Virus genome (UHGV): UHGV-0115916 | Source: a virus | Strand: one strand, 5' to 3' | DNA: 33,398 bases | Translations under genes and position numbers: made by a program | Shown: in pieces, positions 2,471-33,348 of the stretch | Layout of the letters: each line of letters begins with the position of its first letter | Numbering within the stretch: position 1 is the stretch's first letter | Notes under the pieces: generated by a model | The model's input: only the letters and a program-made list of their open reading frames with translations | What the model was told of the DNA's origin: nothing | Database searches by the model: none

Positions 2471-3973
<1,503 letters not shown>

Positions 3974-9803: not shown

Positions 9804-10355
9804 TTATAGATTCTCCGTTGCCTTTAGTTTTAGTGTTACTACATTCGTGATAGGCGTCTTATATTCGTTATCTGCATCTAATACGGCGGTAAGTTGAATA
9901 TTATTGTACTTAATGATTTCCCCTGCCTGTACGCTGGAACGTAGAGCCGGGAATACAGTAATAGAAGTATTAGTACGGTCGATAATGCGATAGATTTTAG
10001 TATGATTGGTGAATTGAACCATATCACCCACACCTAGTAACTGTGAGTTAGTTGTGATTTGGATTGATCCCGCTGCTACTGCGTTTGTACTGGATACTGC
10101 ACCAGTTTGTGTACCTGTGTATTTTGATAGGTGTCCTAAGTCCATAGGGAAAGGCTTACCTAGTGAATATGTAGAAATGAAATTATCCACTTGGCGACGG
10201 TCTTTAATGTTATATGTTAGTGTAAATTCAACTTCATAGTATTGAATACCCGTTGCACGTTGTAACTTTTGCCCCGTCCATGATTGGTGTTCATACATTG
10301 GCTGTACGCTATTTAAAGTAACACCAGATACTTTAATTGCATTTGTAAAATTCAT
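9804..10355 (-). CDS. Minor / distal tail protein (gpM position)
   Basis: 183 aa; first gene after the tape measure gene. Confidence 0.5.
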   Translation of the reverse strand: MNFTNAIKVSGVTLNSVQPMYEHQSWTGQKLQRATGIQYYEVEFTLTYNIKDRRQVDNFISTYSLGKPFPMDLGHLSKYTGTQTGAVSSTNAVAAGSIQITTNSQLLGVGDMVQFTNHTKIYRIIDRTNTSITVFPALRSSVQAGEIIKYNNIQLTAVLDADNEYKTPITNVVTLKLKATENL

Positions 10356-13300: not shown

Positions 13301-13335
13301 TTTATTATTGTAAAAAAATAGGGCGATAGAAAATA
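13301..13335 (-). terminator. Intrinsic terminator / attenuator after the major tail protein gene
   Basis: 10-bp stem 13310-13319 / 13326-13335 with a 6-nt loop; the one plus-strand mismatch is a G-U pair in the minus-strand RNA; followed on the minus strand by AUUUUUUUA. Confidence 0.55.
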
Positions 13336-13351
13336 CTATCACCCTTATTTA

Positions 13352-13810: not shown

Positions 13811-13876
13811 TTTTATATTTCCTTATATAAGTTTATTTCTAGTAGGGCAAGAATCCTTTCTTACCCTACGTTGTAT

Positions 13877-16800
13877 TTATTTATTCATTAGTTGTTGTAC
13901 TAATGCTTTTAGTTCATCAATTTGTGATTGTTGATAATCATTATCTTTCTTCAATGATTGAACCGATCCCATTAAATCCATAACAATTGGGTTAACATCG
14001 ATAGACGGTCTATCGCGTGTTAGTTGTTCTACTATGTTTCCTTCTTCATCAAGTACTTCATCATAGATTTCTGGATTGTGTTTCACATACTGAGGTGTGT
14101 TTATTTCTGACTCTTCGGCAATAATCCCAAAACGCTGGCGTTTTTGTTCATCATCTTTATAGACAAAATTAACCATTTTTTGAGATAAAATTCTTTCTAA
14201 CGCTTCGTCGGTTTTTGCTTCTACAATATCTTCTTTATAGTCTCTACCGGATGTACCTTGTAAAGCCAATGCACCACCACCTAGCGGTAGTGAGATCCAA
14301 TATTGTGGGCTTCCTGCTGCTGTGTAGGTCTGGAATCCGTAGTTGCCTACAGTTTCTGAAAAACCAGCACGGATACGTACAACACCATTTGATGCAAGAT
14401 TACATGTATAAGAGGCTGAACCGTTGGAACGTAGCATAATTGCATCAGTACCAGCACTTGAACCACCACACGTAACACGGTTGCTAGTTACATCGAATGT
14501 ACCAGCACATGTAGTATTACCTAATGCAGTAATAACACCGCCGAAATTCATGGTATTAGTAGTACGTGAATAGTTGAATAGAGCTACACCACCTGTATTA
14601 TCACGGTTTAAACGGAATGATCCACCATCTGCTACAAATAGATATGTACTATCTGAGGAATCCGATTCTACAAATGATAAACATGGGTTTGTACTGGTAA
14701 TAGTTAATGGGTTTGACGCTGCGTTAGAGAATTTAGCAGTACCATTATTAGTTACGTTGATACCCGGCGTTGTAATTAGACTACTGAAATAAGAGCCACC
14801 ATTACTAAAGGTCATTAAGCCCTGTCCAACGGTTGCGGAACCTTCACCAACATAGATACGTGCATCATAATCGTTTCCAGTACCGCTACTGTGAAAATCA
14901 ATAAATGATCCCGCCTTTGTTGTTGTACTGCCTAATTCAAAACCTACTGTACTTGTATTTAATGTACCAACCTGTAAGCCACCAGTTTTAATAGTTTGTG
15001 ACCCGTTCCATTGGTTACCACCATCTAGCGTTGGGATAGTTACACCCAATTGATCATTCGTTAGGTATTCTTTCCATGCAGTCCACCCCGCCGTACCAGC
15101 TAATACACGTCTCCATTTACGATTACTTGCGTAGGATGTATATTCTTGTACACAAGCCTGTGCGGTTCCTGCACCAGTTGGATATACGTATAAACCGCCA
15201 GCCTCGGCAATTGGGTATTTGTTAGCAGGGGTTGCACTTGCGTTTAGTGTTTGGTAATAGAATCCAGATTGAGCCGCACCCAATGTATCTAGGTTAACAC
15301 TAGCGGCTAGTGCCGTCTGACTACGGTACATTGCCTGTAAATTATTACGGGCTGCATCTACACTATTTGCACCAGTACCGCCCTCTGTAATTGCAAGTTT
15401 ATTCGTTAGTGTTAGTACACCATTGAAATGTAAACTTGCAGCCATAATATTCATTGAACCACTACCAGCCGCCGTAGTAGAACCGCCTGTAGATTGAATA
15501 CGAGAATCATAATCTACGGTACTACCGGAACTGTGAAAATCAATATAAGATGTACTAGCCGCTACTGTAGAGCCAATTTCAATACCGCCACCTGTGGAAG
15601 AATTAGCCGCAAATCTATTTTGATTGCCGTTAAATTGTTGGTTACCAGACCATGTATTTTCTGTACTTAATAGTGGGATTGTTGCACCAGAAGTACCAGT
15701 ATTAATTACTGCTGAAGTACCTAAGCCTAAGTTTGTACGTGCGTTAGCTACGTTAGTTAAATCAGATAGGTTACTTGCCTTAATAAGATACTTACCATCC
15801 ATTGCAGTACTTGTAACGATACCTAAGTTTACTTGTGCCTGTGCAACGGTACTAGCACCTGTGCCACCGTTCGCCACTGGTACGATATCGAAAGTACCCG
15901 CCGCTTTAACGCCTAAGTTTGTACGTGCTTCTGCTGCCGTCTTAGCACCAGTACCGCCATTTGCTACCGTTAGAGCTTGACCTAAAGTTAATGATCCTGC
16001 ACTTGCTACGCCTAAAGTAGAAGTAGTGGTTTTAATACTTTCACCAGTGATTGCACCAGTTGCCTCTACATCTGCACCCGTAATTTTATTTGCAGAAATT
16101 AAGCTATTGACTTTGACATTACCGGAAAATGTTTTATTCCCTGCAATAGTCTGATCACCAGTTAGAGCTACATACTTTGTATCACCTAGATTAGTTGTTA
16201 AAATACGTTGCCATGCGGTAGTCTGGTTTTTTGCATAGATTGCAAGTGAACCTGTTTTAGTCATTGCGATAGAACTAAAAGTAGTACCATCAATTAGACC
16301 TACACCCATCATATCAGCACTGGCTGGATTACCCACTTGTGACGCTGGGATCTTGATAAAGCTGTTACCTAGTGGGCGTTCTGGTTGATACTGTGGTACA
16401 TCACCACCATTACTACCTACACCATAGGAACCTTCTACTAATGCTGCACTTGCTAACGCCGTACCATCACGTGTAATAACGTCTGTAGGTACAAAAGAAT
16501 AGGTTTTCATTACTACGGTATCTTTATCACCAGATACGTTAGCTGATTGGATTTGACCATTAACCATTGAATAATTGATTAAACCATCTTCAATATTGTA
16601 GCGTAGTGTTAATTGAAATTCTTTTTGACTCTCGGTTGCAGCATCTAAGAAAGCATGTGTTTCATCATCTGGAATATAGTTAACAGTAATATCAATATTA
16701 TCTACGTTTTGTTCTGCTGCTAGTTTAGATGAGTACTCACTATCGTATGTTTCAAGTGTTTGTATCTCACTTTCGATTCCAAATGACGGCATCGCTGCCA

Positions 16801-16903
16801 ATTCGTTTATTTCTTCGTTGCCTGCATTATCGGGAATACGGTTAGCAGTATCATTATTATAGAATAACTTAAAGTTATTACCTGTAAAAATATCATTACT
16901 CAT
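13877..16903 (-). CDS. Tail fibre protein with N-terminal tail-tube-like domain and C-terminal intramolecular-chaperone-like domain
   Basis: 1008 aa; N-terminal ~150 aa aligns with the 152-aa major tail protein (DIFTG/DIFSG, VNYIPDDETH/VNYLPDNETH, GDKDTVVMK/GDKDAVVTK); repeated NGGTGA...NLG fibre repeats in the middle; C-terminus (GRDYKEDI ... RFGIIAEE ... IDELKALVQQL) resembles peptidase-S74-type autoprocessing chaperone domains. Confidence 0.7.
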   Translation of the reverse strand: MSNDIFTGNNFKLFYNNDTANRIPDNAGNEEINELAAMPSFGIESEIQTLETYDSEYSSKLAAEQNVDNIDITVNYIPDDETHAFLDAATESQKEFQLTLRYNIEDGLINYSMVNGQIQSANVSGDKDTVVMKTYSFVPTDVITRDGTALASAALVEGSYGVGSNGGDVPQYQPERPLGNSFIKIPASQVGNPASADMMGVGLIDGTTFSSIAMTKTGSLAIYAKNQTTAWQRILTTNLGDTKYVALTGDQTIAGNKTFSGNVKVNSLISANKITGADVEATGAITGESIKTTTSTLGVASAGSLTLGQALTVANGGTGAKTAAEARTNLGVKAAGTFDIVPVANGGTGASTVAQAQVNLGIVTSTAMDGKYLIKASNLSDLTNVANARTNLGLGTSAVINTGTSGATIPLLSTENTWSGNQQFNGNQNRFAANSSTGGGIEIGSTVAASTSYIDFHSSGSTVDYDSRIQSTGGSTTAAGSGSMNIMAASLHFNGVLTLTNKLAITEGGTGANSVDAARNNLQAMYRSQTALAASVNLDTLGAAQSGFYYQTLNASATPANKYPIAEAGGLYVYPTGAGTAQACVQEYTSYASNRKWRRVLAGTAGWTAWKEYLTNDQLGVTIPTLDGGNQWNGSQTIKTGGLQVGTLNTSTVGFELGSTTTKAGSFIDFHSSGTGNDYDARIYVGEGSATVGQGLMTFSNGGSYFSSLITTPGINVTNNGTAKFSNAASNPLTITSTNPCLSFVESDSSDSTYLFVADGGSFRLNRDNTGGVALFNYSRTTNTMNFGGVITALGNTTCAGTFDVTSNRVTCGGSSAGTDAIMLRSNGSASYTCNLASNGVVRIRAGFSETVGNYGFQTYTAAGSPQYWISLPLGGGALALQGTSGRDYKEDIVEAKTDEALERILSQKMVNFVYKDDEQKRQRFGIIAEESEINTPQYVKHNPEIYDEVLDEEGNIVEQLTRDRPSIDVNPIVMDLMGSVQSLKKDNDYQQSQIDELKALVQQLMNK

Positions 16904-16917
16904 TTCTCTATATTTCC

Positions 16918-17322
16918 TTATTGTTTTTGAGTTGCTACAATATTTATAGAGAATGATAAAGATTGATAACCAGTAGTCGGATCTGTAACTACTTCCCCAT
17001 TGTCGAATGCATATGATAATAGTGTTACTGCATTATCTTTAAATTCTTTAATTGTATTTGTTTTGAAATAATCCATAATTTCCCCGAAAATATCGGCGGG
17101 AAGTTTTACTGATGGTTCGGGTACTAACAGGAATTGAAAATCAAATGTTCCCGTTTGTCTTTGAGTACCGAAATTTGTTAGGTTATAACTCTGGTTTACA
17201 CTAACTAGAATGAATAGATCCTTACCTGCCTGAATATTCATAGCCTTTCGGATTGGTTGAATATTATTCAAACTCGTAATTATCGTGGTTTGTACGTCTT
17301 TTAACAGTGCCATAATTACCAC
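16918..17322 (-). CDS. Head-tail connector / neck protein (tail terminator or completion candidate)
   Basis: 134-aa ORF between the capsid and tail genes; function assigned by position only. Confidence 0.4.
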   Translation of the reverse strand: MVIMALLKDVQTTIITSLNNIQPIRKAMNIQAGKDLFILVSVNQSYNLTNFGTQRQTGTFDFQFLLVPEPSVKLPADIFGEIMDYFKTNTIKEFKDNAVTLLSYAFDNGEVVTDPTTGYQSLSFSINIVATQKQ

Positions 17323-17636
17323 CCATAGTTATTAATGGATGTTAGGCGTATATAGATTTCACTGATACCGCTTAAATCATCGTATACATTACTTACTGTA
17401 TAACTAACACCGCCGATACCTAGAATAGTACCTGCTGTAATATTATGCGTTTTAATATCTGCTGACTTTGCAGAAATAAACGTTTCTACACTTTCTACTA
17501 ATCCTTCAGTACCGCTATCTAACACAACGGGGCGTACATCTACTATACCCGTAAATGACGCCCCGTTAATTGTGATAGGTTCACCAAAGGCATTTAAGAA
17601 AGTAGAATCAATTTGATTACTTGTAAAATGCCTCAT
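17316..17636 (-). CDS. Head-tail joining / head completion protein candidate
   Basis: 106-aa ORF directly downstream of the capsid gene; function assigned by position only. Confidence 0.4.
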   Translation of the reverse strand: MRHFTSNQIDSTFLNAFGEPITINGASFTGIVDVRPVVLDSGTEGLVESVETFISAKSADIKTHNITAGTILGIGGVSYTVSNVYDDLSGISEIYIRLTSINNYGW

Positions 17637-17645
17637 GGGTAATCC

Positions 17646-19496
17646 TTATGCTTGTAGTTTAATTTGTACGAATGCTTCCTCGTGACCGATTGCAGTGTCG
17701 AGATATTGGAAACTACGAATAGCGATAGTTTGAGCCGCACGATAAGTAGTATCGTCAAAATCTAGTTCTTGGCCTTCATTCCAGTTAGCGAAAATTAGCT
17801 CTGAGAAGTCACCGATTAGAATGGTATCTTGTGCAACGAAAGTAGATTCAATTACACGTACTTCATCGTTTAGCCACATGTCATAGCGATGACCTGCTAC
17901 CATTGCTACGGCTGCGGTATTGCTGAGAACTGCGGTTTGACGTAGTTTTGCTAGCATTGCTGGATGCACGATAGCTACACAACGATTAACATCAACGTTT
18001 GCTACACCTAGTGCCTCAATTGCTTTTTGTACGTCTGCTTCGGTTACTGTACCCGCTGCTGCTGTTTCTTGTACTGGTACTGCTAGTGCAATTTTATCAA
18101 ATACTGCTTTTTCTAGACCGTTAGAGCAATGGCGTAGTAGTTCATCAGTTACATAACGTTCAGTTGCTGCATTGCTTAGTAGCATTGCTTTAGTAACTTT
18201 AATACCTGCTGCAAACATAGTAGGCTTTAGAGTGATCTTGTCGAAAGATTCAAAACCATCTACTACGGATTCATCTTCACCGTAGAATTTCGCTACAGGG
18301 TTCATACCTTTAGCACGTGGGATAGAGAAATTACCACGACCTGCTAGGCCACCAAATACAGTAACAGGTAGTTGACCTAGTACAGTACGTGCTAGTAGTT
18401 CACGTAGATAAGAGTCGGCTAGTTGTTCTTTAACTAGACCTGCTGCGGTAACAGTAGAGGTAGTATCTGAAGTAGAACGTACCATTGCATTTAGATCAGC
18501 ACTATAACCACGTGAACCTTTATCAAAAGTTGCTAGTTGGTTATCTTCACCTTTAAGACTACGTAGACCTTCAGCGATTAGAGATTTATTTTCCATTTGT
18601 TTGATATCCTTATCAATTGATTTATCTTTATTTAGTAGTGAGCGTTTAAATTCATCTACGCTTACACCGTTTTTAATTGCTTCTTCGGTACTAATCCCTA
18701 GTACGTTAGAAATAGATTGAAGTTCGCGTACACGCTTATCTTCTACATCTTTATTTAGTTTTTCTTGAATATTGATTTCAGTAGTTGCAATAGAACGTTC
18801 TTCTACTAGTTCCACTTCTTGAAGTGGTTCGGATACTTCTTCTTTTACTTCTTCTTCTTTCACATCTTCAGCGACTACTACAACTTCTTCAGTAACTTCT
18901 AATTCTGGTTGTACTTCTACTTCCTGAATTTCTTCTACGGCTTCTACTTGTGGTAATTCTTGTTTTTGTTCTTCCATGATTGGTTGATCCTCTAAAGTGA
19001 TTTCTTCATTTCTATTTAGTGATCTTCCAATTCCTACTGTATTGTCTGCGGGGGTACTTACTGAACTTAATTCATATGGTTCCCATCGAGTTACATATAA
19101 ATTATCACCTTCAAAGTAATAATCTTTAATGTTGTAACCTACTGATACTTTCGGGCGAATGCCTTCTAAGATCATACCGAAAATAGTTGTAGCACTTCCT
19201 AAAGCACTAAAGCGTACTGTTGCACGACATACTTTATCCATATCTACGCGGGCGTTTTCTACTATTCCAACTTGACGCATTGCATCATGTTCTACTAGAA
19301 CTGGTGCACCATCATTAAGACGGTTTAAATCTACGTTCTCTGGATTGCATAGAAGGATCTCATTAAATAGAGATCCGTTGATTTCGCGAGTTACTGGAAT
19401 TTCTGAGGCAAAAGATAATTCGACGGTACGATCATTTTCATCAATAGCATTACTGATCTGTGTTAGATTGATCGCCCTCTTCTGGTTCAATTCCAT
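17646..19496 (-). CDS. Prohead protease - major capsid protein fusion (HK97 family)
   Basis: 616 aa; N-terminal ~150 aa matches the HK97-type prohead protease pattern (GAPVLVEHD..., KVSVGY, ELSSVSTPADN); acidic Glu/Val-rich linker (aa ~170-230); C-terminal ~300 aa consistent with an HK97-fold capsid protein; 47-nt overlap with the portal ORF makes the start uncertain. Confidence 0.7.
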   Translation of the reverse strand: MELNQKRAINLTQISNAIDENDRTVELSFASEIPVTREINGSLFNEILLCNPENVDLNRLNDGAPVLVEHDAMRQVGIVENARVDMDKVCRATVRFSALGSATTIFGMILEGIRPKVSVGYNIKDYYFEGDNLYVTRWEPYELSSVSTPADNTVGIGRSLNRNEEITLEDQPIMEEQKQELPQVEAVEEIQEVEVQPELEVTEEVVVVAEDVKEEEVKEEVSEPLQEVELVEERSIATTEINIQEKLNKDVEDKRVRELQSISNVLGISTEEAIKNGVSVDEFKRSLLNKDKSIDKDIKQMENKSLIAEGLRSLKGEDNQLATFDKGSRGYSADLNAMVRSTSDTTSTVTAAGLVKEQLADSYLRELLARTVLGQLPVTVFGGLAGRGNFSIPRAKGMNPVAKFYGEDESVVDGFESFDKITLKPTMFAAGIKVTKAMLLSNAATERYVTDELLRHCSNGLEKAVFDKIALAVPVQETAAAGTVTEADVQKAIEALGVANVDVNRCVAIVHPAMLAKLRQTAVLSNTAAVAMVAGHRYDMWLNDEVRVIESTFVAQDTILIGDFSELIFANWNEGQELDFDDTTYRAAQTIAIRSFQYLDTAIGHEEAFVQIKLQA

Positions 19497-20943
19497 TTTC
19501 CATTTTTTCCTTTTGTATTTCTTCCATGACTACCGCCGGGTCATAACCCATTTCACTAATAACCATTGCTTTACTCTTAAGTCCTGAATCAATTGCAAGT
19601 ACCTCAGTTTGAAGGTCTTTATATGGATCAAGTGAGATTTGGCGAGTTGGTACATATTGGGCATGAGTTAGATTATTGAAGTCACTAAAACTTAAATTGC
19701 TTAATGCACTATTATTTATCATTGCTGCTTTCAACCACGTAACATAAAGAGGCTTAAGTACAGAAACGATTAACGCATTAGTACGAGTTTTAAATGTTGA
19801 TTGTTGTAGTTTGTCCGTTAGTTTTGCTGCACTAAATGAAGCATTACTAGTATCAGAGGTTAGGGATTGTTTTGTAATATCAAGCCCCATTGCAATCATC
19901 ATTAATTGGTTATCTACGAATTCACTAATACCATCTGTAGTTTGTGTAGGGTTAACAGTTTTAATATCCTGTCCTGCCTGTAGTTCTACGATAGCTGCCG
20001 GATTTAGATAATCTTGTTCATAGTAAGAAACATCATCACCTTTTAGTAATTCGATTTCATCACTATCTGGATTAGTAATAAATGCCATTGCTGAAGCTGC
20101 TACTTTACGAGAAGTAATAGCCGCAACCATGAATTCTTCTAATTCTTTTAATTTATCAGTACCTGCATGTACATCTGGAATACCGCGTTGCTGTGTTGGG
20201 TAGTCCTGCTGGAATAGGTGTAGAATCTCTTCTGCTGGTACTCGTTCACGTTCACCTAAAAGGTAGTTGTACATGATAGGGTTATAGCGAGTAATCCAAT
20301 ATGCAACCGGGCGATTAGTATCAATATCAAATTCAATACCATTACTGATATAGTTACCTGAAGGTAGAATCTGGTTTTCATATGTACTAATTCGCATTGA
20401 GTCGATGATCTCTACCTGTGGCATACCATCACGCGTTTGGTGAATGCGGATAAAGCAATCTCCATCGATACTACGAGTACGTTCTACAAGGCGTTGGAAT
20501 GTACTGATATCAAGCGTACCGCAACGGGAAAAGGCTTTAGGATCTTCGGCCCATGCATAAAAAGCATCTTCTAACTGTTTATTCACCTGTTGGTTTACTT
20601 TGTCATCCTGTGAACTATGCGAACAAGGGCGAATATATAGACCATCTGCACCAGTAACACCCGCTGAGTTAGTCGCAACGTACTTTTTAACGATACCGTT
20701 TTTAATAGATAGTTCACGGCTTGCCGCTACCATCACTGGTAAAGTACGATTAATAATTGCGTTAATGTTCCCGGCTTGATTTCCTGCGGTGAATCCGAAT
20801 GAAATAACAGGACTACTTGAACCTAGATTTAGGGAAGTCATAGCACGTTTCATTGGGTTGTTTTTCATTAATGCAGTTTTATGTATTTGTACTTTTGGTT
20901 TTTCTGGTTCCTGTACTTTTTTATTTTTATTCCATCCGAACAT
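19450..20943 (-). CDS. Portal protein (lambda gpB-like family)
   Basis: 497 aa between the terminase and capsid genes; acidic C-terminus; size and position typical of portal proteins. Confidence 0.8.
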   Translation of the reverse strand: MFGWNKNKKVQEPEKPKVQIHKTALMKNNPMKRAMTSLNLGSSSPVISFGFTAGNQAGNINAIINRTLPVMVAASRELSIKNGIVKKYVATNSAGVTGADGLYIRPCSHSSQDDKVNQQVNKQLEDAFYAWAEDPKAFSRCGTLDISTFQRLVERTRSIDGDCFIRIHQTRDGMPQVEIIDSMRISTYENQILPSGNYISNGIEFDIDTNRPVAYWITRYNPIMYNYLLGERERVPAEEILHLFQQDYPTQQRGIPDVHAGTDKLKELEEFMVAAITSRKVAASAMAFITNPDSDEIELLKGDDVSYYEQDYLNPAAIVELQAGQDIKTVNPTQTTDGISEFVDNQLMMIAMGLDITKQSLTSDTSNASFSAAKLTDKLQQSTFKTRTNALIVSVLKPLYVTWLKAAMINNSALSNLSFSDFNNLTHAQYVPTRQISLDPYKDLQTEVLAIDSGLKSKAMVISEMGYDPAVVMEEIQKEKMENGIEPEEGDQSNTDQ

Positions 20944-21470
20944 TAACGCCCCCTATGAAATGTTGTAATAGATTTAATAGGGCTACCTGCGTTTAGTCCT
21001 TTCATATCTGAAATTAAATCGTTTGCCCTTTTAACATAGGTAGAACGTAGGCGTAGAAGTACTTCGCTTGATTCATAAGTTAGGGCTTTATTTTGTATTG
21101 ATTGACTTAGTACACCACCACCTTTAATACGGTCTAGTGTAATTTGGTCAATATCTTTTATGATCTGAATTAGATCATTATATTCTGAGGCTTTACTAGT
21201 TGGATCAGTTACTTCAAATTGTTGTACACCGTATGCTTTAGGACTATCAATAATTGCAGTCCAGATACCCACGCCCCACGTATTAGTATCAATATCAGGG
21301 AATGGGTAAACATAGGAAGTTTTAACACCGTTAGGATCTATCAAATCGATATTAGTTCCTTCTGGATAGTTGAAAGTAATTGTTTCACCTTTGATAATAT
21401 CGCCTTTTAAATCAACTTTGCGAACAATTGCCATTTGTTTTATTTCCTTATTTAAAGAATCCTCCACCAC
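20943..21470 (-). CDS. Hypothetical protein in the lambda gpW position (possible head-tail joining protein)
   Basis: 175-aa ORF between the large terminase and portal genes; no motif recognised. Confidence 0.4.
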   Translation of the reverse strand: MVEDSLNKEIKQMAIVRKVDLKGDIIKGETITFNYPEGTNIDLIDPNGVKTSYVYPFPDIDTNTWGVGIWTAIIDSPKAYGVQQFEVTDPTSKASEYNDLIQIIKDIDQITLDRIKGGGVLSQSIQNKALTYESSEVLLRLRSTYVKRANDLISDMKGLNAGSPIKSITTFHRGR

Positions 21471-23376
21471 GTCTAGACGGACGTACTACACGACCTGTTT
21501 TTACTGGTGCTGGTTCTTCTTTATTTACTTCTTTATTTAGTCCTTTCTCTTTTTGTTTGGCGTTGAATTCGCGTAGTTTGCGGAATGGCTGATTACCTAA
21601 TTTAGATAGATACCAGTGGAAACATATTAAAGCGTAGTTAAGACAATCAAGCGTTTCATTCCTTGCTGAACTAATTTTCTTAACCCATACCCACGCCCCA
21701 GCTTTAATAACTCTCTTCTCACTTGATACCTGAATAAAGTAATCATCTGGTACTGAATGGCTGAAGTGTATTTGTACTTCACTACTATTACCACTATCCG
21801 ATACTGCACGGTTTAATAGTTGTCTAATATTACTTTTCCCTAAGTTTACGTTTAGGTTTATTAGACTATGACCACCAGCCGTAGAGCCTTTAAAGAGTGG
21901 GTTAGTATTTGAAGTACCGCCCTTGATTGGTTTAAAGATTGTCGATGCACTACAATAGCGATATACCGTACTGGTTGCGTTACCGTTCGAACTATCTACA
22001 AAACCTGCAAGTACTTTAAGTGGTTTACCGGATACGGTTTTAAAGTTAGTTTGTGAAAATGCTGTTAGCTTATTCCATGCGGGAGCCTCTATTTTAGTAC
22101 AGTCAATGCTATGAATACTGCGATGATCGAGTACATAAAGATTCTTTTCACTTATTCCTAACGTTGTTACTTCAAGGCGGTCTAACTGTTGGTCTACACC
22201 TAGTACGATTCCTTGACAGTCATCCGGCACGGTATCTATATCTATTGAACTATCACGTAGGTTTTCAAGTAATACTAAATCATGATCGGTATTCTCTTTA
22301 TCAATATAAGGAAGTCCTAAGACGTTATTGTAGAATGAGGCTAGATCAAATGTATAATGTGCTTCGGCAAAATCCTGTACTATTGATTTGATCGAGTTAA
22401 TCGGGGAGTATAAACGGCTAATATGATACCCCATGATATCCGTTACTTCTGGTACTGTAGCTATCCATTCACCCTTACGTATCATTCTTACACGTTCGGC
22501 TTCTGTGATTACATTATTACACTTAGGACATTGTAGTTTTGCTGTCTCTGCATCTGGAATGCGACGACGACCACCATCAATAATTTTCCAGTCGAATTTA
22601 ACATTTTCAAATACTAATTCATGTGCATGATCACAATGTGGGCAAGGTACGTAGAACTTCTGTTTATTACTTTGCTCGTACTGCTGAGTGATTAAATCAT
22701 TCTCATCAAGTGGTGTAGAACAAACCATAATAAGAGGGTTGCTAAAAGCCTTTGTACGCTGTTCTGCTAGCTTTAGTGGGTTCCCTTCATCACCATCTGC
22801 ATCTACGTTAGATATTTCGTCAAGAAAGATACGGGGGGCTGTCAAGCCTCGCAAATTCGCACTACTACCCAATGTTAGGAAGTACGTAAAAGTACCGTCT
22901 AAGTTTTGTTGTGTCTTATCATTATTAGTATAGTTTTTATCATTCTTATTACTGACTAGATTTTTAAGTACTGCACATGCTTCGATTACTGATTGCCATT
23001 TACCAGTACGAAACTTACTAGTAGTGCTGGCTGTTGCACCTGCGAAAATTAGATTGCTTGGATCATTTGCGAGGAAGTAGTACATACTATTCTGTAAAAC
23101 TGTTGTTTTGAGAAGTTGTGCACTGCTCATCAAAACTATTTTTCTAATTCTTGGATTAGTAATGTCATTTATGGGCTTGTGCTGAAAGGAAAATAACTTT
23201 ACGCGTTGTCCTTGTAGTTCCCCATCCGGGAATACTAAATTATTCTCTACCCATTCCGCTGGTAGTTGTCGCTTCGGAGGTAGGATCGACTTCGCCGCCC
23301 TCGTTAGTACCTTCATCATCTTCTGGTAGTTGTTCATCCGTGTATGTTCCTTCATATTCATAGCTACCAATTTCAT
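21448..23376 (-). CDS. Terminase large subunit (lambda gpA-like)
   Basis: 642 aa; VPCPHCDHAHELVF ... CPKCNN zinc-ribbon-like segment and DCLNYALICFHWYLSKL parallel lambda gpA (VACPHCGEEQYLKF; EALDCFVYALAAL); true start probably an internal Met (about 23316-23361) because the track ORF overlaps the small subunit gene by 137 nt. Confidence 0.85.
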   Translation of the reverse strand: MKLVAMNMKEHTRMNNYQKMMKVLTRAAKSILPPKRQLPAEWVENNLVFPDGELQGQRVKLFSFQHKPINDITNPRIRKIVLMSSAQLLKTTVLQNSMYYFLANDPSNLIFAGATASTTSKFRTGKWQSVIEACAVLKNLVSNKNDKNYTNNDKTQQNLDGTFTYFLTLGSSANLRGLTAPRIFLDEISNVDADGDEGNPLKLAEQRTKAFSNPLIMVCSTPLDENDLITQQYEQSNKQKFYVPCPHCDHAHELVFENVKFDWKIIDGGRRRIPDAETAKLQCPKCNNVITEAERVRMIRKGEWIATVPEVTDIMGYHISRLYSPINSIKSIVQDFAEAHYTFDLASFYNNVLGLPYIDKENTDHDLVLLENLRDSSIDIDTVPDDCQGIVLGVDQQLDRLEVTTLGISEKNLYVLDHRSIHSIDCTKIEAPAWNKLTAFSQTNFKTVSGKPLKVLAGFVDSSNGNATSTVYRYCSASTIFKPIKGGTSNTNPLFKGSTAGGHSLINLNVNLGKSNIRQLLNRAVSDSGNSSEVQIHFSHSVPDDYFIQVSSEKRVIKAGAWVWVKKISSARNETLDCLNYALICFHWYLSKLGNQPFRKLREFNAKQKEKGLNKEVNKEEPAPVKTGRVVRPSRRGGGFFK

Positions 23377-24041: not shown

Positions 24042-24980
24042 ATGAAACACATAATCCAAACCAGAAGTGTTTTTAAGGATATCGAAGACTCTTTATTTAG
24101 TGAGTTGCATTCAGCTAAGACAAGTATCAAAATCTGTGTTGCATGGATAAACTTTGAGCTTTTTGAAAATATATTATTATCTAAGGCTAAAGAAGGTGTT
24201 GAAGTTGAGATATTAGTTAATAATGATTATATCAATACAAAATTTCTTGATAAAATATCTGATAATATAAAACCATTAATTAATCTAATTAAAAACCCTA
24301 TTAGTAACCACTTAATGCATCATAAATTTTGTATCATTGATGATGAAGTTTTGATTACTGGCAGTTATAATTGGTCAAAAAGAGCACCATATCATTATGA
24401 AAATATAATAATCATCCGTAATGATTTCAATCTAATAATGCAATTTAAACATGAGTTTGCAGATTTAAAATACATGGGTGCAATGCCAAGTACAGAATTT
24501 AATGCATTTAAAGTAACCAAAAATCTCAATAGATTTGTTGTTGGCACATATAGTTCATCTGTGGGGATATATGAAACCGTCACATTGCAGTTATGGGAAA
24601 TTGATATTAACAACTTAACTTTTGAACGACATGGCGAAATGGATATCCCTTTCTTCAATTATTTATTAGATATTAATACTGATGATCATTATCTTATTGA
24701 TGAAAAAGAAAGGTACATCGATCTATATGATCAAGAGCGTAGACAGATGGAGACTATCCAAAGTCATTTTAGAAGATTAAATTGTTCAATTCATGCTTAT
24801 GGAACAGCAATAATAGCGAACGAGAGCGAATACCTTGAAGGTTATGAAGAGCCTATTCGTGTAATTCACTTCAATTGGATAGATATGCGATTAAGCAAAG
24901 TATTACCCTCTTCTTTGCCCGCAACTATGGAACTTGAAGGATTATGGCACGAAATATATGCTCCAAATGGATATATTTAA
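24042..24980 (+). CDS. Phospholipase-D-family (single HKD motif) nuclease with uncharacterised C-terminal domain
   Basis: 312 aa; exact H-x-K-x4-D-x6-G-S-x-N motif at aa 93-110 (HHKFCIIDDEVLITGSYN); AAGGA RBS 6 nt before the ATG; AT-rich gene. Confidence 0.8.
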   Translation: MKHIIQTRSVFKDIEDSLFSELHSAKTSIKICVAWINFELFENILLSKAKEGVEVEILVNNDYINTKFLDKISDNIKPLINLIKNPISNHLMHHKFCIIDDEVLITGSYNWSKRAPYHYENIIIIRNDFNLIMQFKHEFADLKYMGAMPSTEFNAFKVTKNLNRFVVGTYSSSVGIYETVTLQLWEIDINNLTFERHGEMDIPFFNYLLDINTDDHYLIDEKERYIDLYDQERRQMETIQSHFRRLNCSIHAYGTAIIANESEYLEGYEEPIRVIHFNWIDMRLSKVLPSSLPATMELEGLWHEIYAPNGYI

Positions 24981-25896: not shown

Positions 25897-26622
25897 TTAT
25901 TTCCTTAATAACTTTTTTAATTCCTCAACTGTCTTCATTTCTTTTCCAATATGAATCATTGCATGACAGTTTGCACATAAAGGTATAAGATCTTCAATTG
26001 GGTCAATCTTATAGCGTTTACCAATAGTATGTAGTGGCACTATATGATGAACATGAATATAATTTTTTCCGTGACTTCCATACACTTCTTCAAAATTAAA
26101 ACCACAGACACCACAACTCAAACCATGTTTATCGATACATTCTTTTCTAGCCTTTGGATCTCTCTCATAGTACGTAGCAATCCTTTGATGCTTTTCACCT
26201 TCATAGTATTCACTTTCTATTTCAGGTGTGAATGAATAGTAATCTTCATCGGTGGCATACCAATCTCCATCTTTTTTAGTAAGATATTTTCGTACTATTT
26301 TCTTTTCAAAATGTTTAATCCTAGCAGCACCATTTTCAGTTGTTTTCTCATGCCTAGTCTGGCTAAAGGTGAAAAGACTATACCCTTCATGTAAAATTTT
26401 ATCTATGTGTTCGATAGATTGTGTATAACCATTTTTTTTGTGTCCATTTACATTTTCACGCCAACTGCTAGCCAAGATTAAAACTTTCTTACCATCATCT
26501 GATCTAAGATCTTCCCAAGCTCCAAAAATTATTTTTTTGTTGATCTCATCAATAAATGACCAACTCCAGTTATCATTTTTACATGTAGCACCCAAAGAAC
26601 GCATGAACTCTGTTCGGGACAT
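25897..26622 (-). CDS. HNH nuclease (restriction / McrA-like) with N-terminal domain of unknown function
   Basis: 241 aa; C-terminal HNH motif CGVCGFNFEEVYGSHGKNYIHVHHIVPLHTIG ... LIPLCANCHAMIH; AAGGA RBS; N-terminal ~150 aa Trp-rich domain not identified. Confidence 0.75.
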   Translation of the reverse strand: MSRTEFMRSLGATCKNDNWSWSFIDEINKKIIFGAWEDLRSDDGKKVLILASSWRENVNGHKKNGYTQSIEHIDKILHEGYSLFTFSQTRHEKTTENGAARIKHFEKKIVRKYLTKKDGDWYATDEDYYSFTPEIESEYYEGEKHQRIATYYERDPKARKECIDKHGLSCGVCGFNFEEVYGSHGKNYIHVHHIVPLHTIGKRYKIDPIEDLIPLCANCHAMIHIGKEMKTVEELKKLLRK

Positions 26623-31449: not shown

Positions 31450-33348
31450 CTAGATCTGGTCTATCCGATAACGCTCTATGAACTCTTTACGTGTTAAACC
31501 AGTCGATTCTAATGCAGTGGCTATATCCTTTGGAACTCGACCATTCAAGGCAATACTATATGTATTGCCTTCATACACAATGTCTACTCGATCATACTTT
31601 CCGGTATTAGGCCAGAATGAAGCCCCACTTATTTCACTATAACCAACCACTTCTAACATCTCATTAGCAGTATTGAACAGATCTAAATAACTTTGTTCAA
31701 TTTTATCAAGTTGTTCCACTGCTTTATTAAATAATGGCAGATTGCTAGTGGTAAGAAATCCTTCATCTCTGATACTTACATTATCAACAGAAGAAAATTC
31801 AACTTTAAACGCCCAATGTGGTTTTCTATCAGTTCCACCAAAAACTAACCATTCATCTTTAAAATGATACTTTATTTTTATCGTTATACACCCATCAGTT
31901 TTATCAACTATAACACTTTCAATAATAGAACTAATTACTTTCCTTATTTTATTTCTATCCGTATCCTGCATATTTGTAAAAACCGCCCACTGAATAAGAA
32001 TCATAAATTCATTTATATCGACTTCTAGAGATCCTTTACCTTTCAGTGAATATAAGCGTTCTTTTAACTTATCAACTTCCAGAACAGTCTTTTTACGTTC
32101 CATATCAAACGCATTTAGTTGAACTGCTAACGCACTAACATTAGGAGCAATTGCTATTGCTTGAGCCATGTTTGTTATGCGAGATTCCAGATCAGTTATC
32201 AACGTTTCTTTTCTACTGAGGTCTTCTTCTATCACAGTTGTGTCAATACCATCTTTTAGTCTCTTATTCATGTAACCGATCAGTAGTGAAATGATCGTAC
32301 AGTGTTCAACTAATTGTGCTGATATAGACCAGCCAGAACAGTTTTTTTGTAAGTGAACCCCATTAGTACAAATATAGCGAGCACTGCCATGATTCATGAA
32401 AGAATGCATAGTTCCTCCACACTTGCTACACCGTAACACCTGCAACCCTGATAACAATTTAATTTCTTCTACTTTGTCTTTCTTAGCCTTGAAGTTGTTT
32501 TGCTGCTTACGTTCAGCCAAGGTTAAATACTCTGCTTCATCTTTGCATAACCATGGATAGTAGTTATCAAGTTTGTAAGTAGCACCACCAGCATTGATAG
32601 TCCTTTCACCAATCAACGCCCGATTATCACGCATCTTTTTCAATACCTGATAATCCCATTCTTTACCCTTTAAACCATTAGGATATTTTTTATCGAGATG
32701 ACGCTTTACTGTATAGATGCCATTCCCATCTAAAAACATGTCTATAGCTTCGCGAGCGATACTCCAGTAAACGGGATGTTCTTTTACTGCTTCATATTGC
32801 GAACCTGAATCATCTATCCAAAATGGATGGCGACCAACTGACTTAATGTTTACTGGCAACCCTGCTTTATGACGTTCGACCAAGGCAACAACATTGCCTA
32901 TGGTCCTGTTAGATTTCGTTTCTGATTCTTCATTGCCACGGATAAACATCAGAATAGAAATCATCAGATCAGTAGGGTTTTGTCTGATGGATTCTCTGTT
33001 ATAGACCTTCCGATCCATTCCTGTGACAATCGTTAGCCCTAAACCAATCAATTCAAGGAATAAACGAAGTGCTTCATCCACCTGATCGCGTGATAGTCGG
33101 TCGAGGTTTTCACAGTAAAGCCAAGAGTCAGACGGTATAGCATTATTTTTTACGGCGTCTATGAAGTCACCCAACTTACCCGCCCTATTTTTTCCCCTGT
33201 AAGCACTCGTGCCAGGTTCCAAAATTTCAACCATTTCAAGCCCCGCTTCTTCAGCATAGGCTTTCGCTGCCGCTACCTGCCTGTTCTTGGTTGTTCCTTT
33301 TTCTTGGCGATCACTTGACCACCTGATATAGCTATAAAGTTGCGGCAT
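31450..33348 (-). CDS. Large serine recombinase (phage integrase)
   Basis: 632 aa; N-terminal resolvase-type catalytic domain (YIRWSSDRQ with the serine nucleophile; ...RLSRD...), recombinase domain, Cys-rich zinc-ribbon segment (CSKCGG...C...C) and long C-terminal coiled-coil-like region. Confidence 0.85.
   Translation of the reverse strand: MPQLYSYIRWSSDRQEKGTTKNRQVAAAKAYAEEAGLEMVEILEPGTSAYRGKNRAGKLGDFIDAVKNNAIPSDSWLYCENLDRLSRDQVDEALRLFLELIGLGLTIVTGMDRKVYNRESIRQNPTDLMISILMFIRGNEESETKSNRTIGNVVALVERHKAGLPVNIKSVGRHPFWIDDSGSQYEAVKEHPVYWSIAREAIDMFLDGNGIYTVKRHLDKKYPNGLKGKEWDYQVLKKMRDNRALIGERTINAGGATYKLDNYYPWLCKDEAEYLTLAERKQQNNFKAKKDKVEEIKLLSGLQVLRCSKCGGTMHSFMNHGSARYICTNGVHLQKNCSGWSISAQLVEHCTIISLLIGYMNKRLKDGIDTTVIEEDLSRKETLITDLESRITNMAQAIAIAPNVSALAVQLNAFDMERKKTVLEVDKLKERLYSLKGKGSLEVDINEFMILIQWAVFTNMQDTDRNKIRKVISSIIESVIVDKTDGCITIKIKYHFKDEWLVFGGTDRKPHWAFKVEFSSVDNVSIRDEGFLTTSNLPLFNKAVEQLDKIEQSYLDLFNTANEMLEVVGYSEISGASFWPNTGKYDRVDIVYEGNTYSIALNGRVPKDIATALESTGLTRKEFIERYRIDQI

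Follow-up and report, generated by a model that had tools for sequence, protein, structure and literature searches.

In phage T5, the tube protein has a diverged duplicate, p140, of which a single ring is placed between the tail tube and the distal tail protein and carries the p132 collar with its L-shaped fibres (PMC10038345), and in DT57C and T5 the N-terminus of the fibre threads into this dodecameric, Ig-like collar (PMC10713586). The authors of the T5 study note that the anchoring of lateral fibres must differ in other siphophages, the lambdoid ones in particular (PMC10038345). Here we analysed the virus genome UHGV-0115916, a stretch of 33,398 nucleotides (nt) that we refer to as the window, in which a 1008-amino-acid (aa) protein is encoded directly upstream of the major tail tube protein. 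This protein begins with a tube protein paralogue, continues as a repeat-bearing fibre and ends in a chaperone of the S74 type, a domain plan that a preliminary description of the same DNA had proposed and that was borne out by our analysis.

Whereas T5 distributes the task over three proteins (the p140 ring, the p132/LtfC collar and the pb1/LtfA fibre), the tube paralogue and the fibre are here one chain. As with p140, a tube-fold duplicate is encoded besides the major tube protein, but p140 is a double-fold trimer that is undecorated and enclosed by the collar, whereas the duplicate described here has a single tube fold, for which a hexamer is expected, and carries its own extension of ~850 aa. 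The distal receptor-binding region and the chaperone are homologous to those of pb1/LtfA; the N-terminus, unlike that of pb1/LtfA, is tube-like and without similarity to the collar-inserting segment. No match among deposited phages covers the fibre N-terminus, except for that in Escherichia coli phage DCP80, which is itself a member of the family. In comparison, the ring, collar and fibre roles of T5 look as if they were merged in one polypeptide.

The protein also shares with lambda gpV, T5 pb6, SPP1 gp17.1* and the lactococcal tube proteins the succession of a tube fold and an outward C-terminal adhesion module. Those modules (Ig-like in lambda gpV, Ig in T5 pb6, FN3 in SPP1 gp17.1*, and the lactococcal extensions) are small and monomeric and sit on the major tube protein or on its frameshift product, whereas here a separate, 70%-diverged paralogue bears a ~850-aa fibre of the trimeric type with a self-cleaving chaperone. 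A further likeness is to Dit and to T4 gp54 and gp48, tube-fold proteins that form one specialised ring, which can be a platform for receptor-binding proteins. Unlike Dit, for which the window has its own Dit-like gene, the fibre N-domain is nearest to the major tube protein and still has the long hairpin, which is shortened in proteins of the Dit type. At the other end, the protein resembles K1F endosialidase, T5 pb1 and phi29 gp12 in its C-terminal Peptidase_S74 domain with a Ser/Lys(+5) pair after a Thr, but none of these three has a tube-fold N-terminus. The parts are all of known kinds (tube fold, GGTGA repeats, T5-family distal fibre and S74 chaperone) and their combination is new; in the literature, including the fibre-atlas and Klebsiella prophage papers, we found no description of a tube-fibre fusion. 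Because there is a separate major tube protein, a different N-terminus and no recognisable collar, we regard the locus as a variant of lateral-fibre attachment that is a member of neither family.

Architecture and family of the tube-fibre protein

The fibre open reading frame (ORF) has an ATG start with AAGGA 11 nt upstream. Residues 1-155 of its product aligned with residues 1-149 of the 152-aa neighbour at 30% identity and 53% positives with two small gaps, and BLASTP returned E = 1e-20 for that one pairwise comparison; all three motifs from which the resemblance had originally been read lie inside this alignment. That the neighbour is itself a true tail tube protein is shown by its matches to Pfam Phage_tail_3 (27.5 bits, cut-off 24.2) and to PHROG 158 'major tail protein' (E 5.6e-20); the fibre N-terminus matched the same PHROG with E 2.9e-25, while no Pfam tube model was reached by the fibre N-domain at E<0.1. 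Because a separate and better-conserved 152-aa tube gene comes after the fibre gene at every locus, the 1008-aa protein is a paralogue and not the major tube subunit. Residues 1-150 keep the tube fold, with a beta-sandwich, one flanking helix and a long beta2-beta3 hairpin; all secondary-structure elements of that fold, including the inter-ring hairpin region, are present without deletions, and the best fold match is lambda gpV. Positions I5, G8, Y57, VN74-75, PD78-79, H83, L86, Q97, GDK125-127 and V130 are conserved in both lineages.

We compared the paralogues in 49 non-redundant genomes. The tube-like domain and the tube protein share a mean identity of 26.5% within a genome and 26.4% across genomes, and because the two values are equal, we conclude that there was one old duplication and no later gene conversion. 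Mean pairwise identity is 45% for the tube-like domain and 63% for the tube protein. Distances between the anchors correlate strongly with those between the tube proteins (r = 0.88): the anchor domain stays with its own tail, and the distal fibre moves.

In an alignment of 91 cluster representatives, residues 1-240 are conserved, and a sharp drop with alignment gaps follows directly after residue 240. Identity to the window protein is 36-58% in the blocks of the tube-like domain and reaches 64-65% in blocks 161-180 and 181-200, so that the conservation peak, 161-200, covers most of the linker and the start of a small beta domain. The linker residues G161, G163 and Q171 are invariant in the family, as are G179 and N180. 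In the AlphaFold2 (AF2) model, the small domain has strands at 178-185, 198-205, 208-215, 222-226 and 232-234, with a predicted local distance difference test (pLDDT) score of about 80-89; residues 178-240 had no Pfam match even at E 10. We also considered this domain as a 'pyocin knob' repeat of the distal part and dropped the idea as unsupported, given that BLASTP found nothing significant, only a YA.N..W.R.L motif, and Pfam found nothing. Residues 1-240 are thus the conserved module of the family, and the shaft and receptor-binding end beyond residue 240 are exchanged freely. This pattern is characteristic of a receptor-binding fibre and supports the conserved module as its fixed virion anchor.

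Where the variable shaft begins, residues 244-261 matched Pfam BppL_N below its cut-off (E 1.5e-4) and, weakly, the N-terminus of the TP901-1 and p2 receptor-binding proteins. The shaft carries GGTGA...NLG units at 316-331 and 346-361, a degenerate one ending at 391-393 and an isolated one at 508-523, with GGTG cores at residues 316, 346 and 508 and NLG ends at 329, 359, 391 and 521, the last of which reads NLQ. These repeats had been noticed before and are real; the period of 28 aa given for them is not, as the tandem copies are spaced by 30-32 aa. They match the fibre of phage SU10 (7z47, E 3e-11) and a chain of 9zd7 deposited as 'short tail fiber gp92', and the sequence is a known fibre repeat and not a chance pattern. 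Self-BLAST of the fibre protein revealed no long internal duplications.

The motif ELGS...IDFHSSG..DYD.RI occurs twice in the fibre, with IDFH at 454-457 (nt ~15533-15544) and 668-671 (nt ~14891-14902). Some relatives encode the fibre in two or three genes, the first of which always carries the tube-like domain, and the split point follows this motif or precedes a GGTGA unit. One such relative (L002, motif region 2400-2700) encodes a 462-aa protein ending in ...IDFHSSGNNIDYDSRIIA, followed by a 311-aa protein beginning with ...ANGGTGA. By analogy with the branched LtfA/LtfB fibres of DT57C, the IDFHSSG motif may be a fibre-to-fibre joint.

The distal part is related to the lateral fibres of the T5 family and of other E. 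coli siphophages. With tblastn, residues 503-1005 showed 33% identity to the ltfp of Bf23, and further matches were to CAjan, SLUR25 and the LtfA of Gostya9 (48% over residues 770-999); PHROGs 6578, 1980 and 5481 ('tail fiber') match the same part. Residues 500-850 hold the differences from a 96%-identical prophage cluster and are the part that varies most between close relatives.

The chaperone-like C-terminus that had been described is likewise confirmed. Pfam Peptidase_S74 (PF13884) matched residues 887-933 of 1008 with E 7e-7 and 29.9 bits, above the gathering cut-off of 22, and residues 866-998 matched the C-terminus of 8hqz_d ('L-shaped tail fiber assembly', a T5-family lateral fibre) with E 2.6e-44. 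In the latter alignment, QGT-SGRDYK of the fibre stands opposite QGTSGIEYK of the 8hqz fibre, and T884-S885-G-R-D-Y-K890 has the same T-S-x4-K layout as T5 pb1. In pb1 the arrangement is T1263-S1264...K1269, and the exchange S1264A blocks self-cleavage (PMC4690869). By this analogy, the chaperone (885-1008) is predicted to be cut off after the trimer has folded, leaving a mature chain of 884 aa.

For the family, we searched exhaustively with residues 1-160 against representatives at 50% clustering. Of the 139 representatives that matched, about 100 are 700-1500 aa long, and in these the tube-like domain always occupies residues 1-160; free-standing tube proteins of ~150 aa were matched only with much weaker scores. 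A word-indexed protein search with residues 1-265 yielded only four matches, so that the family is visible only in the exhaustive search. A scan of IMG/VR gave 69 loci, and at ~60 loci the tube-domain fibre gene lies directly upstream of a ~150-aa tube gene, an order also found in prophages of Pseudocitrobacter, Phytobacter and E. coli. Some match was present in 24 of 5426 complete genomes (E. coli chromosomes), and a single-protein genome query matched two genomes; the homologue of E. coli WGI31CT, of 1074 aa, is named 'pyocin knob domain-containing S74 family peptidase'. Megablast of the region against the deposited phages found no match, and only one of 50,697 deposited phage records, that of E. 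coli phage DCP80, has this architecture, unannotated. The C-termini are of several unrelated types, among them S74 ends and ...RIHVWKVTQ ends accompanied by a separate assembly-protein gene. Homologous fusions, for which the preliminary description had suggested looking, do exist: the fused frame is kept in >100 protein clusters and at ~60 loci. Database labels for the protein are PHROG 'major tail protein' and PGAP 'S74 family peptidase' or 'tail fiber domain-containing protein', and NCBIfam has no match for it.

Two side observations stand apart. In a protein of 1826 aa with an N-terminal signal-like sequence (P0125), nine stretches each matched the tube-like domain query; this may be a repeat protein of tube-fold-like units or a compositional artefact. 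The DCP80 record (PQ671644.1, L001, 1734-16877) is classified as a 141-kb member of the Straboviridae (Gaprivervirus), yet contains a lambda-like siphophage head-tail module. Apart from a terminase of the gpA type, the products of this module are annotated as hypothetical; they are a large protein in the capsid region, a tube-domain fibre of 699 aa, a second fibre of 745 aa and a tube protein of 164 aa. The record may be a chimeric assembly.

Proposed attachment to the tail and competing explanations

The reading that we favour, and to which we give about an even chance, is that the protein is a lateral (side) tail fibre fixed by its duplicated tube protein as one dedicated, probably tip-proximal ring. 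As is established for S74 chaperones (PMC4690869), the C-terminal domain would trimerise the chains, with folding running from the C-terminus to the N-terminus and the self-cut falling at T884/S885. Each finished fibre would then bear three tube-like domains on linkers of ~27 residues, a ready-made half ring, and two fibres would form one hexameric ring, stacked onto the usual tube rings that surround the tape measure protein. The fibres would project from the tube wall, and the ring would most likely be single and probably next to the distal tail protein, where T5 puts p140. We envisage that the fibres would make a first, reversible contact with surface polysaccharide, and that the gpJ-like central fibre would engage the final receptor.

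In siphophage tube domains the C-terminus faces outward, and the decorations of lambda gpV, T5 pb6 and SPP1 gp17.1* are attached there; for this reason, a fibre can project from a ring of these domains. Because a trimeric fibre takes three neighbouring positions, a hexameric ring would hold two fibres. We favour a dedicated ring because of the precedent of T5 p140 (PMC10038345) and because a trimer needs three adjacent tube domains. Neither a collar nor a lambda-type stf gene was recognisable from the Pfam and PHROG matches of the window, in which no search was directed at p132 and several small ORFs are uncharacterised, and the 1008-aa protein is thus the only candidate lateral fibre. By a rough estimate, the fibre is ~40 nm and the tail ~110 nm long (from the 727-aa tape measure protein), so that near the tip the fibre could reach the cell together with the gpJ-like fibre.

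Among specialised tube-fold rings, mixed 3+3 rings occur in phage Nocturne116 (PMC13595954). We judge an alternating 3+3 mixed ring to be unlikely for the present protein, because on geometric grounds three alternate subunits cannot converge on one outside trimer axis with linkers of 27 residues. A bolder version, which we consider doubtful, is that the trimers act as pre-assembled half rings that form a two-fold ring in the six-fold tube and, depending on affinity, seed tube growth at the tip complex or insert repeatedly along the tail. If this were true, the tail wall itself would be a receptor-binding organelle, with fibres attached without an adaptor and with a solution of the 6-to-2x3 symmetry problem that has not yet been seen.

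Several points weigh against a dedicated ring near the tip. Both the presence of the protein in virions and the entry of its tube-like domain into the tube are predictions from sequence. The AF2 models are monomers of moderate confidence (pLDDT 73-74), and to our knowledge a hexameric ring with two trimers has not yet been seen in any solved siphophage. The faster evolution of the tube-like domain fits a single ring, but it also fits a domain that no longer polymerises. The fibre gene is located on the neck side of the tube gene and not among the tip genes as is that of T5 p140, although gene position is uninformative on the location of the ring because a tandem duplication explains it equally well. 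Finally, the fibre and tube genes appear to be co-transcribed and their ribosome-binding sites are nearly the same, which does not suggest a low copy number.

This last point concerns the sequences just upstream of the two starts, which are nearly identical, TAAGGAAATATAGAGAA-ATG for the fibre gene (16904-16920) and TAAGGAAATATAAAA-ATG for the tube gene (13811-13830), with almost the same ribosome-binding sequence (TAAGGAAATATA). Apparently, the region of translation initiation was either duplicated along with the genes or maintained in matching form with them. The stable stem-loop in the spacer between them (RNA fold -19.4 kcal/mol, z -4.3) lacks a U tract, and a strong terminator-like hairpin with a U tract (13320-13345, minus strand) is found only after the tube gene, before the chaperone genes, where it may be a partial terminator that raises the output of tube protein over that of the downstream tail genes. 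These expression signals do not settle the copy number of the fibre.

They do bear on the best placed of the rival explanations, in our judgement an unlikely one, a decoration of the shaft with fibres as the preliminary description had proposed. Copies of the protein would polymerise together with the tube protein at many positions, and the whole tail would bear fibres in the manner of a bottle brush. Other tube proteins carry Ig, FN3 or sugar-binding extensions, of which this would be an extreme form. The shared ribosome-binding site and the absence of a terminator between the two genes agree with such a decoration of the shaft, as does the full-length tube domain with its hairpin, and SPP1 gp17.1* and the lactococcal tube extensions provide examples in which decorated and plain subunits are mixed. 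However, with a divergence of ~70% the paralogues probably cannot replace one another in the lattice, three adjacent positions would have to be filled at once for each trimeric fibre, and ~850 aa per subunit over 25-30 rings would be costly and crowded. The one siphophage tube paralogue with a solved structure, T5 p140, forms a single ring.

We think it clearly unlikely that the tube-like domain stays outside the tube, either as an adaptor on the tube exterior, the distal tail protein or the hub, or in another role such as assembly control. In favour of such an adaptor are its evolution at a faster rate than the tube protein, its scores below the thresholds of the Pfam tube families and the location of the conservation peak, which falls outside the tube-like domain, in the linker and the first part of the small beta domain. 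On the other hand, every tube-fold element including the inter-ring hairpin region has been retained without deletions, the core motifs in common with the tube protein are conserved in both lineages, and we know of no solved structure in which a tube-fold domain binds a tail from outside.

Improbable, and ranked below the external adaptor, is a neck-proximal position, in which the protein would form the last ring under the terminator and carry whisker- or collar-type fibres near the head for early surface scanning or tail orientation. Its basis is the place of the gene between the head-tail joining genes (17316-17636 and 16918-17322) and the tube gene, where neck genes are usually encoded, but the tandem duplication of the tube gene accounts for this place as well. 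Moreover, the lateral fibres to which the distal part is homologous, those of T5-like and other siphophages, bind receptors and act at the tip, and with the rough lengths given above, a fibre at the neck would be too far away to reach the cell together with the tip. That a frame or assembly error or a decaying pseudogene joined a duplicated tube gene to a fibre gene can be dismissed as already refuted: isolated damaged copies exist, with an IS3-type insertion that cuts the gene after 232 aa (L022, 5998-7850) and a frameshift inside the tube-like domain that yields 104 aa + 1150 aa (L053, 6001-9745), but over 100 clusters from independent assemblies, and complete E. coli chromosomes as well, have the fused frame intact.

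Gene order and the surrounding genome

Genes were assigned from the ORF list together with Pfam and PHROG matches (Table 1). The module is a complete lambda-like siphophage morphogenesis set, all on the minus strand.

Table 1. Features of the fibre gene and of the head and tail genes around it, with positions in the window
Feature	Residues	Position	Strand	Basis or remark
gpA-type large terminase		21448-23376	minus	
Head-tail joining protein, 175 aa		between terminase and portal in list	minus	
Portal		19450-20943	minus	
Capsid-family protein, 616 aa		17646-19496	minus	Phage_capsid match at residues 354-613
FII-like head-tail attachment protein		17316-17636	minus	
134-aa protein		16918-17322	minus	adjoins fibre gene upstream
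1008-aa fibre gene with tube-protein-like N-terminus		13877..16903	minus	ORF list
Tube-fold domain, tail tube protein paralogue	1-150	16454..16903	minus	
Linker, consensus GSYGVGSNGxDVPQYxP...GN	151-177	16373..16453	minus	low-moderate pLDDT
Small five-strand beta domain	178-240	16184..16372	minus	AF2, conservation
YVALTGDQTIAGNKTF motif	244-261	16121..16174	minus	variable shaft begins
Three tandem GGTGA...NLG repeats	309-397	15713..15979	minus	third without GGTG
Fourth, isolated GGTGA...NLQ unit	501-524	15332..15403	minus	just after first IDFHSSG..DYD.RI motif, at fibre split point of relatives
Distal receptor-binding part	503-884	14252..15397	minus	tblastn, PHROG
Predicted self-cleavage site	T884-S885 scissile bond, K890 at +5	14234..14254	minus	
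Intramolecular chaperone (Peptidase_S74)	885-1008	13880..14251	minus	
12-bp stem-loop without U tract		13842..13869	minus	66-nt spacer between fibre and tube genes
Major tail tube protein, 152 aa		13352..13810	minus	Pfam Phage_tail_3, PHROG 158
Two chaperone-sized genes		between tube gene and tape measure gene in list	minus	
Tape measure protein, 727 aa			minus	
Dit-like distal tail protein		9804-10355	minus	after tape measure gene; PHROG 'distal tail protein'
Hub protein, then DUF6950 protein			minus	
gpJ-like central fibre, 1100 aa		5488-8790	minus	

The 616-aa capsid-family protein has a strongly acidic, E/V-rich middle segment before its Phage_capsid region, and its counterparts in relatives combine Peptidase_S78 and Phage_capsid in one chain; it is probably a fused prohead protease, scaffold and major capsid protein. 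We considered the 134-aa protein as a tail terminator and dropped this assignment, as it had no PDB sequence match and no PHROG or NCBIfam match.

The window is 96% identical to a prophage in Pseudocitrobacter faecalis DSM 27453, and because it encodes a serine recombinase (31450-33348), we consider the element temperate. The G+C content of the whole window (1-33398) is ~37%, with 29-44% across 1-kb windows, and roughly 50-55% is expected for Pseudocitrobacter, E. coli and Phytobacter hosts; the lineage is thus unusually AT-rich for a temperate one in Enterobacteriaceae. A GIY-YIG SegE-like endonuclease (3046-3483, minus strand) is encoded between the lysis and tail genes, and an HNH endonuclease and a PLD-family nuclease (25897-26622, minus strand, and 24042-24980, plus strand) near the terminase region. 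Among these nucleases there may be homing endonucleases, or a gene for defence or anti-defence.

Meaning for lateral-fibre attachment

Although found widely in prophages and metagenomes (>100 clusters at 50% identity), the architecture is nearly absent from cultured phages (1 of 50,697 records). It also poses an annotation problem, since the PHROG and PGAP names convey nothing of a tube-fibre protein.

Given the precedent of T5 p140, the fusion extends a known principle and is not a new one, with the 6-versus-3 symmetry problem as its notable aspect. The clean separation of the anchor (1-240) from the exchangeable distal part amounts to a natural plug-in design, which could serve the retargeting of phages or tailocins of this type. 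Little is known about how siphophages other than T5 attach their lateral fibres to the tail, and the protein described here would represent a third solution, in which the fibre brings its own tube subunit.

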